DNA of 64,000 nt from a virus. Taxonomy: Duplodnaviria; Heunggongvirae; Uroviricota; Caudoviricetes. The notes beneath the pieces are model-generated. The model saw only the letters and a program-made list of their open reading frames with translations, ran no database searches and was not told the DNA's origin. Shown piece after piece: positions 12,351 to 39,615 of this stretch. A program made the translations under genes and the position numbers. The DNA lies in IMG/VR virus record IMGVR_UViG_3300014205_000001, positions 32,001 to 96,000 of that record. One strand, given 5' to 3'. Positions within the stretch are counted from its first letter, which is position 1. The number at the start of each line of letters is the position of its first letter.

Positions 12351-12824
12351 TTATAAATTTTTCAAAAAGTTTATTGTAACTTCGTTAACAAAGAAAGGTT
12401 CTCCTTTTCCTTTTAATGTTTTCATTACATGACCTACATATAAACCTAACAGTCCTGTATTACCATTCTTATAATCAGTTAAATATCTAGGAAATTGTAA
12501 TACAAATTCCCGCAATATTCTTTCGATTTCTTTTCGTTGTAATCCACACAAACCTAAAACGACTAATGACATCTTTAACATTTCATTAAAGTTAGTTTCA
12601 CATTCTTCAATTGAATTACCCATTGCAATGGGTCCGCCTTCGCCTTCATATATTGCCATAAAACGATCTTCATCAAGTGTTTCACCACTACGATACATTG
12701 TACATTTTAATTCTACTTTTGTCATCCCATCAATTGTATTGGGACGATAATGTATCATGCCAGTATTACTATTTTTATAGTAATGATCTAACCATTTTTT
12801 TTCTATTCTATTTTCCATATTCAT
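12351..12824 (-). CDS. Protein with C-terminal GatB/YqeY-like tRNA-binding tail
   Basis: C-terminus FPRYLTDYKNGNTGLLGLYVGHVMKTLKGKGEPFFVNE matches the GatB tail pattern; start moved to ATG 12824 so it does not overlap the tRNA. Confidence 0.65.
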   Translation of the reverse strand: MNMENRIEKKWLDHYYKNSNTGMIHYRPNTIDGMTKVELKCTMYRSGETLDEDRFMAIYEGEGGPIAMGNSIEECETNFNEMLKMSLVVLGLCGLQRKEIERILREFVLQFPRYLTDYKNGNTGLLGLYVGHVMKTLKGKGEPFFVNEVTINFLKNL

Positions 12825-12826
12825 AG

Positions 12827-12900
12827 CTGCCCCACGAGGATTCGAACCTACGATTACCTGAGTCAAAATCAGGGGTCACTGCCAATTAGACGACAGGGCA
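12827..12900 (-). tRNA. tRNA-Gln(UUG)
   Basis: Acceptor UGCCCUG/UGGGGCA, anticodon arm CCUGA-UUUUGAC-UCAGG, T loop UUCGAAU; bulged U in the T stem. Confidence 0.88.
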
Positions 12901-12910
12901 TTATATTTTG

Positions 12911-12998
12911 TTGTCCCACCAGGATTCGAACCTAGATCGAAGGCGTATTACCGCTCGGCGTTCAAAGCGCCGTGTTCTGCCAGTTAAACTATAGGACA
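12911..12998 (-). tRNA. tRNA-Gln(UUG) with long variable arm
   Basis: Acceptor UGUCCUA/UGGGACA, anticodon arm CGGCG-CUUUGAA-CGCCG, ~20-nt variable region, T arm CUAGG-UUCGAAU-CCUGG. Confidence 0.85.
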
Positions 12999-13009
12999 TT
13001 ATAAAAATC

Positions 13010-13040
13010 AAAAAGCCTGATAAAACAATTATCAGGCTTC
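13010..13040 (-). terminator. Attenuator terminator upstream of the tRNA-Gln pair
   Basis: AAGCCUGAUAA-UUGUU-UUAUCAGGCUU followed by U residues, 12 nt before tRNA-Gln. Confidence 0.8.
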
Positions 13041-13057
13041 GTGTAAATTTGTATTAA

Positions 13058-13135
13058 TTAATTCAACAACGTGTCTGACAATATTTTTAAATATTGTTGC
13101 TGCTGCCATTGTGAATATGTAATTAAAATTTTCAT
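13058..13135 (-). CDS. Putative Gln-sensing attenuator leader peptide MKILITYSQWQQQQYLKILSDTLLN
   Basis: Read manually: CAA TGG CAG CAG CAA CAA run; stop 18 nt before the terminator. Confidence 0.8.
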   Translation of the reverse strand: MKILITYSQWQQQQYLKILSDTLLN

Positions 13136-13214: not shown

Positions 13215-13224
13215 ATTTGTAGTG

Positions 13225-13940: not shown

Positions 13941-15062
13941 TTATCCTACTTGTATTATTGTTTCAGTATTATTATCTATTAGGTATTGTACATCACCATC
14001 AGGTCCACCAACGTTGTTAGTCATTAAAGATTTATGTAAAGTAATAGTTAATGTATTACCTGATAAATTAAAGACACTGTTATTCGCTGCAGAAATACCT
14101 AAATTTCGACATTCACTAATATTTAATGAAGTTAAATTTGTAGCACCTGAAACTAAAGGTCCGATAATTGTGCGGCATTTTGGAAATGATGCAGATGTTA
14201 ATAATAAAGCATTTGAAAAATTAGATGCTCCTAAATAATGACATTCAGGTAATGAAATTGATGTTAATAAAGGTACAGTAGTAAAAGCTGAAGCACCAAT
14301 ATATCTACAAAAAGGTAAAGAAACGGAAGTTATTGCTGCGCATAAATCAAAGACAGTATCTAAAAGTGTACGACAATAAGGTAAATTAATAGTAGCTAAT
14401 GAAGTACAACCACTGAATGCTGCAGATGATATAGTCACACATTGTGGGAAATTAATAGAAGTTAATGACGTGCAATTTTGAAATGCATTGTTCATAATTG
14501 TTGTTAGTAAAGGTGCATTAACTGTTGTTAATGCTGTACAACCTGAAAATGTTGATGCAGAAATTGCTTTACACATAGGTAAATTTAATGTCGTTAATGA
14601 TGTACAACCTAAAAATGCTGATGCAATAAACATAACAGCTTTTGATAAATTTACTGAAGTTAATGATGTACAACCTTGTACTGAATTACCACCAACAAAT
14701 ACACATCTAGCTAAATTTAATGTAGTCAATGCTGTACAATTAATAATTGCACTACCACCAATATTTGTTACTGCATTTAAATCCAGAGTTGTTAATATTG
14801 TACAACCTGAAAATGCTGTACCGTTTAATTGAACAACTTGTGATTCGTCATCTACAAAAGAAATTAAATGTGTATTATTTGCAAATATACTTGTTTTGAG
14901 TGTTATACCTTTTGCACCATGTAATGTTACTACATTGCCTAATACATTTACACTTTTTATTAAACTTCCATTTGCTGTACCTGATTGTAATGTAAAAAAA
15001 GCATTCCAACCTGCTACATCCGATGCGGGTGCGTTTACTATATTATCGTATGTTAAAATCAT
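13941..15062 (-). CDS. BspA/TpLRR leucine-rich repeat protein
   Basis: ~22-aa repeats AF.GCT.LT.I.LP.C..I. Confidence 0.88.
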   Translation of the reverse strand: MILTYDNIVNAPASDVAGWNAFFTLQSGTANGSLIKSVNVLGNVVTLHGAKGITLKTSIFANNTHLISFVDDESQVVQLNGTAFSGCTILTTLDLNAVTNIGGSAIINCTALTTLNLARCVFVGGNSVQGCTSLTSVNLSKAVMFIASAFLGCTSLTTLNLPMCKAISASTFSGCTALTTVNAPLLTTIMNNAFQNCTSLTSINFPQCVTISSAAFSGCTSLATINLPYCRTLLDTVFDLCAAITSVSLPFCRYIGASAFTTVPLLTSISLPECHYLGASNFSNALLLTSASFPKCRTIIGPLVSGATNLTSLNISECRNLGISAANNSVFNLSGNTLTITLHKSLMTNNVGGPDGDVQYLIDNNTETIIQVG

Positions 15063-31528: not shown

Positions 31529-33223
31529 TGCAGCAATCGTTGTTATAACTTTATCAGCAATTAAATCGTAAAGGAAATCATTTGGATGACGACCATCAGG
31601 TGGGTATATACCTGAGTCAAGCATGTCTTGATATGGATTTACCATTACAACTCCTTTTGCAGTTGCGACAACTTGAGCAGCGTTGATAAATGTTAAGTGA
31701 CGAGCATTTGTTGCGGGAACACCTACACCGTAAGCTAAATAATCATTCCAATTTAATTCAGTACATAAGAAGCCAATAACTAAAACAATTCTATTTAATG
31801 GCCAACCCTTACTAATTGCAACATCAATAATTTCACCTAATTGTGTACTGTATAGAGTTGTATTATAACCTGCAACGTTTAAACCACAATCATTAATTGA
31901 ATAGCTTATAAATAAAGCACCCATAGACCCAGGTATATATGTCGGAATCGCATTACGATTTTCATACATATTAGGACTACTGATTGGATTTAAGGGAGTA
32001 CTATTTTCTAACGTTGTACCTTGGACAGCATAATTTACTTCTGTCCAATTTTTTGCAGTTGCAACTAAACTACTCCAACGATTAGATTGTACACTAGCAC
32101 CCACACCTTCAGTTGTTGAATCTCCAAAGAAATGTGATTGTTTATTTACACGACCTAATTTCAATTGATAATCAAAAATAATATTATAATATAAATTTGC
32201 TTCAGATGGTGATAAACCATCTAAAAAATGACCTTGTTGTAATTCTTTACTATCAAAGAATCCTGGTGTACCACCATTATTTAATGCACCATAATAAAAA
32301 TTAGAATTTAATACAGTTGCAGCTTGAGTAGTTGTACCTACACTGACACCTTGACGGTAGCCTGTGACTTGAGTAGCACTTAAAATATTTAACCAATAAG
32401 CACCTAAACCATTTGCATCATTTGCATAAATAGTATAATCATCTGTTGTAAAATGAAAATGTCCACCATAATTAGAAAATACTGCCCATGTATCATCGTT
32501 TCCTGCATTTGATGCTCCCAATTCTACTCCTGATGCTCCTAACATTGAACCATTAAAACGTCCAAAGTTTAAATTACTAGCATTTAAATCTGTAGGTTTA
32601 ATACCAATATCTCCATACGCATTTGTACCATTAGGTCTTGCACCTGTACGACTATGAACCCAACCACCTTGAAAGTTAATTTGATAAGTTGCTGGATTTT
32701 TTAAATTGAATTTATGTGTAAAAGCAGTACCACCTATAATCGGATGAAAAATTCTTAAATTTTTATCTGTCCAAAAATTTGTAATAGTATTTAGTGTTCC
32801 TTGCCCTTTAAGTTCTTTTACTAAATCTGAAATTATTGTCCATAATTGTGCACCAGTTTTTTCTTGAGGTGTACCTGTATAAAAAATTGTTGAATCATTA
32901 GGAATACCTGTTGCAGTCATAAATGTAATTGCGTCAGAATCTAAAGGTTCAATATCGATTTCTTTTAAATAGGGAATTGATTTAATAGGAGCAATTCCAT
33001 TGCTATATAAATTTTCAACAACTGATGTTATTCCTGATAATTTTCGAATATTATCTTTTAATAAAATTTCACTACCATTATTAAATACCATATCTGTTGA
33101 AATACGGTAACGTAATGATTTAGTTTGTAATGTAGTCGCAATTGGCTTTTTAAAAAATTCAATATATTCTCCATCCCAGATAGAATCAAAATAAGTTTTA
33201 AGAAATTTCAGTTTATTAGTCAT
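31523..33223 (-). CDS. SGNH/GDSL esterase with conserved N-terminal module
   Basis: FGDSTT, SIND, DGRHPN; start MTNKLKFL at 33223. Confidence 0.85.
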   Translation of the reverse strand: MTNKLKFLKTYFDSIWDGEYIEFFKKPIATTLQTKSLRYRISTDMVFNNGSEILLKDNIRKLSGITSVVENLYSNGIAPIKSIPYLKEIDIEPLDSDAITFMTATGIPNDSTIFYTGTPQEKTGAQLWTIISDLVKELKGQGTLNTITNFWTDKNLRIFHPIIGGTAFTHKFNLKNPATYQINFQGGWVHSRTGARPNGTNAYGDIGIKPTDLNASNLNFGRFNGSMLGASGVELGASNAGNDDTWAVFSNYGGHFHFTTDDYTIYANDANGLGAYWLNILSATQVTGYRQGVSVGTTTQAATVLNSNFYYGALNNGGTPGFFDSKELQQGHFLDGLSPSEANLYYNIIFDYQLKLGRVNKQSHFFGDSTTEGVGASVQSNRWSSLVATAKNWTEVNYAVQGTTLENSTPLNPISSPNMYENRNAIPTYIPGSMGALFISYSINDCGLNVAGYNTTLYSTQLGEIIDVAISKGWPLNRIVLVIGFLCTELNWNDYLAYGVGVPATNARHLTFINAAQVVATAKGVVMVNPYQDMLDSGIYPPDGRHPNDFLYDLIADKVITTIAAL

Positions 33224-39177: not shown

Positions 39178-39572
39178 GGGACTGCTTGGATTTGATTAGG
39201 TTCATTACTGTCGTAATCAGCATGTAGAGATTTGTTAGAATACTCTTTAACTAAACTTTCAAAAGTAAACGCAAACTTAAAAAATAGCTCAGTTCATAAC
39301 AGAATTGCAGCAGACTTAGGTTACACTGCAGAAACTTCGGTTTCAAAAGCTACTCCTGCTATGGTAGCTGAGTTAGTGTAACAGTCAACTCGAAAGAGTC
39401 GTGCACCCAATTAGCAAACAAAGATAATAATTAAATATCTGAAAAATTAATTCCTGCTTTTTAGTTACATGCCAAAAACTAAATATGTGGACGTCCAGAA
39501 ATGACAATCCTAAACATGTAGAAAATTATAATCGTTGCACTTACTACAGGGGTTCGATTCCCCTCAGTTCCA
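39178..39572 (+). ncRNA. ssrA: tmRNA (SsrA)
   Basis: 5' GGGACUG pairs with 3' CAGUUCC-A (G3:U70); GGAUUUGA; CAUGUAG repeated at P2 positions; T arm GGGGUUCGAUUCCCC; tag ORF 39271-39381. Confidence 0.92.
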
Positions 39573-39615
39573 CTGATCTCTCGTTGTAAGGACACCTCCT
39601 TTAGACTTACAGCAT

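Follow-up and report, generated by a model that had tools for sequence, protein, structure and literature searches.

Classical attenuators such as trpL, hisL, pheL and leuL, together with the multivalent thrL and ilv leaders, arrange an open reading frame (ORF) with control codons, a protector, an antiterminator and a terminator in series. The classical leader-peptide layout has also been described for Actinobacteria (PMC1262725); in Streptomyces coelicolor, mutation of the control codons of the ilvB leader was without effect (PMC1262725), by analogy a precedent for attenuator look-alikes that fail. Attenuation reaches aminoacyl-tRNA supply as well, since E. coli pheST is regulated in this way (PMC4082710) and the Streptomyces trpS and leuS genes are preceded by predicted attenuators (PMC1262725). 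A spare tRNA array in Anabaena, the trn operon, is repressed by TrcR and silent until translation is stressed (PMC10272220), and the tRNA-rich region of a T5-like phage counters retron-Eco7 and PrrC (PMC11555353). The reason why phages carry tRNA genes has long been debated, with codon compensation and the replacement of cut host tRNAs as the two positions (PMC10264068, PMC11025619). Attenuation or leaders are mentioned neither in the main text of PMC11555353 nor in that of PMC7162821, and no account of tRNA genes, or of phage tRNAs, as targets of leader-peptide attenuation was found in the literature searched, which lay mostly outside subscription journals. As judged from the sequence, the mechanism considered below is of a known, trpL/pheL-like type, and its target, tRNA genes in a phage, is likely unreported in that literature.

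The locus lies on the minus strand of a 64,000-nt stretch of DNA (the window; positions 32,001 to 96,000 of IMG/VR record IMGVR_UViG_3300014205_000001) from a virus record of 391,061 bp with 30.9% GC. Named relatives of the capsid protein come from uncultured huge phages and from Prevotella, Tenacibaculum, Chryseobacterium, Sphingomonas and Flavobacterium phages. Among 284 long ORFs, an SD-like motif precedes just 8, and position -3 is A in 59%, both of which we take to be Bacteroidota traits, and we infer a Bacteroidota host.

An ORF of 25 amino acids (13135 to 13058; MKILITYSQWQQQQYLKILSDTLLN) starts 8 nt past the tRNA-Gly(GCC) gene (13214-13143) and carries five Gln codons (three CAA, two CAG) in codons 9 to 14, which read CAA TGG CAG CAG CAA CAA. 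A protector hairpin, in which 13097-13089 pairs with 13086-13078, is seen in the minimum free energy fold of the free leader and also forms in the folding model with a ribosome at the stop codon. The candidate antiterminator strand, AUUGUCAG (13082-13075), begins 12 nt after the last Gln codon, and its predicted partner is the segment CUGAUAAU (13035-13028) in the 5' arm of an intrinsic terminator (13040-13008; hairpin 13040-13012 followed by a U-rich tail). The region 13045-13008 folds with -17.7 kcal/mol (z -7.99), and no other hairpin with a U tract between 13700 and 10200 reaches -5 kcal/mol. Behind it follow a tRNA-Gln(UUG) gene with a long variable arm (12998-12910) and a second copy of tRNA-Gln(UUG) (12900-12826). 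The initial annotation had described the Gln-rich ORF, the terminator and the two tRNA genes, as well as an 8-bp pairing of leader and terminator arm with an overlapping alternative hairpin; its sequence and coordinates agree base for base, and both helices could be located at the positions given above.

The density of Gln codons in the leader is unusual for this genome, with five Gln among 23 codons having a binomial probability of 0.00135 at the genome frequency. None of 3,889 other ORFs of 10 to 45 amino acids has five Gln within six codons, a set that takes the first ATG after a stop and so omits the leader itself, whose frame already contains an ATG at 13216, within the overlap with the tRNA-Gly start. 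The unit thus shares with classical attenuators the short leader ORF, the cognate control codons and the intrinsic terminator upstream of the genes; an exclusive antiterminator whose release depends on a ribosome at the control codons is, in the window, a computed feature. Rfam models run on the window at gathering score returned six tRNAs and one tmRNA alone, with no T-box or riboswitch.

Set beside the classical leader-peptide attenuators, the Gln unit has a like series of ORF, protector, antiterminator and terminator. It differs from them in that the output would be phage tRNA genes rather than biosynthetic enzymes, in that Gln would be sensed, and in that a single tRNA array contains two gates, one behind the other, with six units covering most tRNA clusters of the genome. 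The attenuators of pheST, trpS and leuS are alike in governing the supply of charged tRNA, and in relatives the Gln gate precedes glnS; here, however, the element is viral, the tRNA genes come first and an ORF with a GatB tail takes the place of glnS. A T-box is similar in its predicted read-through when charged tRNA is short, whereas the leader here measures about 95 nt, keeps its reading frame with CAA/CAG variation and has no Rfam match. The Anabaena trn operon is likewise a spare tRNA array silent until stress, but there a protein repressor is in control and induction concerns the whole array, as opposed to the codon-specific RNA switch predicted here. In the T5-like region, phage tRNAs make good the loss of host tRNAs to defence, and a strong promoter over-expresses tRNA-Tyr.

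The Gln unit stands behind a second, outer unit. The tRNA operon is headed by a promoter-like site, TTCACA-16-TATAAT (13935-13908), with 11 of 12 consensus matches, and the promoter-like motif TATAATTG (13913) before the outer leader is its sole copy between 13960 and 12300. Matches in the promoter-like scan are not enriched over shuffles (72 against a mean of 98), tRNA-Ala contains a looser TA..ATTG copy (13417), and the starts of tRNAs or leaders in the operon are overlapped by bare TATAAT hexamers. The outer leader ORF (13859-13773; 28 aa, rich in Val, Gly, Gln and Ala) fits the Val/Ala/Gly cluster best of 21 clusters. It is followed by a terminator hairpin with a U tract (13752-13721), for which a candidate antiterminator pairs 13793-13785 with 13747-13739, and by the genes for tRNA-Val(UAC) (13712-13636), tRNA-Ala(UGC) (13436-13364), tRNA-Gly(UCC) (13295-13224) and tRNA-Gly(GCC). 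At the distal end, beyond the GatB-tail gene, lie DUF7448 and SET-domain ORFs (12340-11570) recognized by Pfam matches, with no terminator found ahead of them; if co-transcribed, they possibly belong to the tRNA-Gln read-through transcript. In one metatranscriptome dataset 0.06 of words matched; a single 230-nt contig equals 13141-13338 (the two tRNA-Gly genes) with one mismatch before ceasing to fit, which is uninformative, and no leader or tRNA-Gln matches were seen in that dataset.

A blind rule, selecting terminators no more than 330 nt before a tRNA gene and the longest ORF of 10 to 45 amino acids ending 10 to 50 nt before the terminator, found seven pre-tRNA terminators in five tRNA regions of the source genome, six of them with a leader. 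The six units serve Leu/Ile/Thr/Cys/Met, Val/Ala/Gly, Gln, Phe/Trp/Lys/His, Tyr and Ser/Arg clusters. Every leader of the source genome fits its own cluster best, so that among 720 pairings the true one ranks first, and against 21 clusters the inner Gln leader ranks the tRNA-Gln cluster first. With three further phage records, to which the Gln scan had led, 21 of 23 pre-tRNA terminators in four phages have a leader. The cognate pairing of leaders and clusters exceeded 200,000 of 200,000 permutations, and did so again when four Gln-only units were set aside and 17 remained; five units ranked their cluster second to eighth, not first. In the Phe/Trp leader, Asn is abundant when the cluster includes an Asn-type gene, and Ser when the cluster includes a tRNA-Ser. 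The rule overlooked the Gln leader of locus L023, choosing a longer ORF, and the Leu leader of the related genome G407, whose terminator and tRNA are more than 330 nt apart; region L187 of G407 gave no leader under the rule.

The sole pre-tRNA terminator of the source genome without a separate leader, that of L083 (G000:C1:233459-233930), is preceded by an ORF whose Asp/Thr-rich tail ends just before the terminator and the Pro/Glu/Asp tRNAs; judged by its motif, the start of this ORF looks like that of a tRNA-His guanylyltransferase. Downstream of the Leu-cluster terminator, a promoter-like motif at G000:C1:26940, and likewise in G407 (L185:200-560), could bypass that gate. Moreover, two UUG tRNA-like genes at 201163-201311 of the genome (L082) have no leader. 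Thus the two tRNA-Gln genes proposed as targets do stand directly behind the inner gate, but the phage also has Gln-anticodon RNAs outside the control of the gates. The L082 genes have odd anticodon loops (one of 8 nt, one with A33), lie behind a TTATAATTGT site and are possible decoys or pseudo-tRNAs.

In scans for Gln runs ahead of tRNA-Gln, a leader and a terminator accompanied the run at 4 of 20 loci from viral contigs and at 19 of 24 from metagenomes (duplicates included), compared with 0 of 11 in a Glu-run control. All 23 terminator-bearing matches of these two Gln scans have an in-frame ATG no more than 60 nt from the run. A scan of viral contigs that was blind to tRNAs gave 83 loci and, among them, 24 short in-frame leaders; a tRNA-Gln followed within 700 nt in all nine leaders with a terminator (directly in eight) and a tRNA that near in none of the 15 without (Fisher 7.6e-7, kinship uncorrected). 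Several contigs are not independent: L008, L028, L079 and L132 are the same, L010 and L019 have a common leader, as do L027 and L040, and the one locus with the layout among four in a shorter-spacing Gln scan is the same contig as L008. Nineteen leaders together contain 89 CAA and 25 CAG codons. With the exact pattern, 185,579 prokaryote genomes gave two matches and 401 genomes from the phylum to which a Bacteroidales MAG belongs gave two, and the layout was found in none of these. Stand-alone Gln units without upstream tRNAs occur at L010, L015, L027, L031 and L034. Downstream ORFs were glnS-like in eight of twelve units tested (five over the TIGR00440 cut-off, three cut by the locus end), GluRS-like in one and without an assigned family in three. 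Furthermore, seven of the eleven modules listed (window 12998-12910, L008, L015, L023, L027, L084, L085) have one tRNA-Gln(UUG) with a long variable arm, encoded by genes of 82 to 89 nt. By eye, none of six loci from a Tyr-run scan showed a leader with a U-tailed terminator. Codon-matched leaders without a U-tailed terminator occur in other phages (L002/L025/L026, L049, L050/L052), as Gln or Tyr runs ending a few bases from the cognate tRNA or as a Tyr run followed by a hairpin that lacks a U tract.

The nested order recurs in relatives. The two best glnS matches in named phages, LR745206.1 and LR756502.1, which were located via glnS and not via the leader pattern, both run from an outer Pro/Asp/Gln leader through Pro/Asp tRNAs and an inner Gln leader to three to four tRNA-Gln genes and glnS; LR756502.1 has an extra short ORF and terminator downstream of glnS (L085:5911). 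G407, the closest relative found (capsid 57% identical), keeps the order of the window in diverged DNA, with a Val/Ala/Gln/Gly leader, Val/Val/Gly/Ala tRNAs, a Gln leader and tRNA-Gln; matched leaders likewise accompany its Trp/Phe, Ser/Arg and Leu/Ile/Thr/Cys clusters. The outer leaders of eight nested modules contain two to six Gln codons each, and that of G407 contains four, compared with zero to two in fifteen other blind-rule leaders (seven in total, counted by eye). In Prevotella phage Lak-C1 (MK250029.1; L093, L094) a leader ORF and terminator stand ahead of two tRNA clusters, one leader being rich in His, Pro, Cys, Met and Arg ahead of those tRNAs. Among four named cultured relatives, PAU and pT24 have tRNAs without the layout, and PTm1 and MA9V-1 gave no tRNA matches. 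A blastn search of the operon against named phages matched tRNA-length stretches alone. A capsid search in four partial records gave no match, so that their kinship to the source phage is tentative. A search for poly-X leaders before tRNA-X in other phages, which the initial annotation had proposed, is positive (21 of 23 terminators in four phages, the source phage among them; G407, LR745206.1 and LR756502.1), and coincidence, which it had called unlikely, is excluded by the genome-wide match of leaders to clusters (1 of 720), the conservation in diverged phages and the Glu control.

The pairing potential of the leaders was assessed by duplex energies. At 21 Gln loci the best duplex with the terminator 5' arm begins 6 to 11 nt after the Gln run. 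Over 11 terminator types, cognate duplexes average -12.55 kcal/mol compared with -8.67 kcal/mol for swapped, non-cognate ones (0 of 100,000), and nine types have p 0.009 or lower against shuffles. The 8-bp duplex of the window (-8.4 kcal/mol; p 0.063 and 0.060, not significant alone) is the weakest of the 11. In 12 aligned relatives, 96.6% of cells of the antiterminator helix are paired, with one compensatory UA/CG/UG pair; among shuffles, 6 of 500 reached this covariation and 67 of 500 this percentage. The terminator shows compensatory changes in four of ten pairs across 12 relatives.

A full-length leader RNA folds into the terminator at equilibrium; the switch therefore needs a kinetic trap, which our model imposes by cutting at the loop. 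The RNA was folded up to the terminator loop with a ribosome footprint of 30 nt, and the model is not kinetic. For the window it predicts sequestration of the 5' arm at 0.90-0.99 with the A site on codons 9 to 14, at 0.14-0.48 on codons 16 to 25 and at 0.10 at the stop codon. The switch size of 0.93 compares with 0.20 +/- 0.36 in random synonymous nulls, none of 300 being as high. The modelled antiterminator includes an inner stem and totals -9.6 kcal/mol, and is larger than the 8 bp first described. For the outer leader, sequestration is 0.7-0.8 at the Val, Gly, Gln and Ala codons and 0.5 at the stop; several leaders fail to close cleanly there (window outer 0.5, L022 0.6, G407 outer 0.8).

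The anatomy, the codon-to-tRNA match, the conservation and the pairing potential of the Gln gate are direct observations, and on them we base the view, to which we assign a probability of roughly 0.8, that the inner unit, in itself a real and conserved feature, is a ribosome-stalling transcription attenuator, Gln-biased in its proposed function and placed in series behind a multivalent one. If the leader is translated and the kinetics permit, slow decoding of its Gln codons would free 13082-13075 to pair with the terminator 5' arm, and RNA polymerase would read on into the two tRNA-Gln genes and the GatB-tail gene. With plentiful Gln-tRNA, in the presumed direction of switching, the ribosome would pass codon 16 and either cover the antiterminator strand or leave it to the protector hairpin, allowing the terminator to form. 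The protector hairpin is also a candidate for the polymerase pause that would couple transcription to translation. Upstream on the same putative single transcript, the outer Val/Ala/Gly/Gln attenuator would act first. Since outer leaders also carry Gln codons, Gln shortage alone, as a physiological trigger, is predicted to open both gates, and Val/Ala/Gly shortage the first gate only; the inner gate would keep the Gln genes off when Val/Ala/Gly (or Pro/Asp) alone run short, and newly made tRNAs would close their own gate in a negative feedback. Two-tier control had been suggested from the window. The nesting is supported by the sole TATAATTG copy before the outer leader and by the recurrence of the nested order in relatives, but the two tiers would not form an AND of two signals.

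The leaders might instead act as general sensors of translation failure, with any stall in the first 15 codons, or a lack of initiation, causing read-through and the Gln codons only tuning the response. The model gives this idea some room, predicting 0.6-0.8 sequestration at codons 4 to 7 and 0.87-0.99 for stalls between Ser8 and Tyr15; with no ribosome the value is 0.55, and 1.0 for three other leaders of the source genome. Leader composition nevertheless follows the tRNAs of each cluster, down to the Asn- or Ser-rich Phe/Trp leaders that vary with cluster content, and six different leaders would be needless for such a sensor, which we consider improbable. For the attenuator favoured here, stalls at the Gln codons are predicted to sequester the arm; the gate would be Gln-biased and not Gln-only, because stalls at Ser8, Trp10 and Tyr15 open it in the model too.

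Still less probable is a codon-matched translated leader acting through RNA processing, Rho access or tRNA-precursor stability, with the hairpin as a leaky constitutive terminator. The start codon lies 8 nt from a tRNA 3' end, a site at which processing would cut, and the terminator-less codon-matched leaders of other phages fit this idea. Terminator arms and upstream strands, however, co-vary with the spacing to the Gln run kept. Moreover, among 53 terminators of the source genome, a test whose filter missed the Val-cluster terminator, upstream duplexes reached p 0.005 or lower for Tyr, Ser/Arg and Phe/Trp, 0.035 for Leu and 0.060 for Gln, so that four leader terminators other than the Gln one lie at 0.035 or lower, compared with two of 48 non-leader terminators at 0.05 or lower (0.01 and 0.05). 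That the element is decaying or a chance one, a constitutive terminator with a Gln-rich ORF whose switching was lost in the source phage, is the least credible reading: the weak antiterminator of the window (p about 0.06) and an ORF that extends 33 nt past the Gln run, as against 9-27 nt in relatives, would fit it, but start, stop, codon run, protector hairpin and spacing are all intact, no synonymous null out of 300 switches equally well, and G407 is organized alike.

The GatB-tail gene behind the tRNA-Gln genes (12824-12351) encodes 157 amino acids with a C-terminal GatB/YqeY tail domain. The last ~55 residues alone match Pfam GatB_Yqey (PF02637; E 4e-08, 33.7 bits, cut-off 27), and residues 96-152 align to residues 421-477, the GatB tail, of 3al0_B (E 1.3e-05). 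A full-length GatB identity was rejected, with 24-31 bits against cut-offs of 338-680 and a match to residues 97-155 alone. In the predicted structure (mean pLDDT 89.9), residues 94-157 superimpose on 4ye6_A (Z 7.8, rmsd 2.0, 60 aligned) and 3tl4_X (Z 7.0, rmsd 2.6, 61 aligned) in VIA-align, both below the caution line of Z 8, and the modelled C-terminus weakly resembles the tRNA-binding domain of eukaryotic GlnRS. The N-terminal part has no Pfam match; its residues 3-93 give weak fold matches to 2dsy_A (Z 5.8, rmsd 2.3, 53 aligned), 6u0i_A (Z 5.5, rmsd 3.2, 56), 6g1c_V (Z 5.4, rmsd 1.8, 53) and dsRBDs (Z 5.2-5.6), and may be weakly HicB- or dsRBD-like. The GatB tail is known to bind the tRNA-Gln elbow. 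Because the ORF stands where glnS usually occurs in relatives, binding of tRNA-Gln by its product is a fair guess.

No homologs of the protein were found in viral contigs and there was no match in Atlas; another search gave one homolog at 79%, and a further 87 matches comprised three near full-length and mostly tail-only ones. Named phages showed two weak tail matches, and 0 of 5 related records had the gene in a search without positive control. The sequence comparisons thus point to a rare protein whose gene, present downstream of the gate as first described, is not a conserved part of the Gln module.

If the switches work, phage tRNAs would be made on demand for each codon group and would in turn shut the gate ahead of them, and each leader would tell which shortage the phage expects. 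A cassette of 130 nt on a reporter could then directly sense the trigger, be it starvation, codon load or a tRNA-cutting defence, and classical attenuation would be extended to tRNA genes, glutamine and viruses. A broader and tentative proposal is that huge Bacteroidota phages might be equipped with codon sensors across the genome, each tRNA group having its own; such a panel would detect a lost tRNA (e.g. through an anticodon nuclease) and induce only the matching replacement tRNAs and synthetase; the nested Gln gate would then be a Gln rescue module and the GatB-tail protein might bind or shield the long-armed tRNA-Gln.

Several minor observations concern the surroundings of the operon and the translation genes of these phages. 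Two leucine-rich-repeat ORFs lie directly upstream of the tRNA operon (window 16767-13941, minus strand), the BspA type being confirmed for 13941-15062. The phage also encodes a tmRNA (window 39178-39575, plus strand) and SmpB (6794-6306, minus strand). Finally, tRNAs with a CUA anticodon are present in G001, G002, pT24 and Lak-C1 (L058, L059, L092, L096), suggesting amber read-through.
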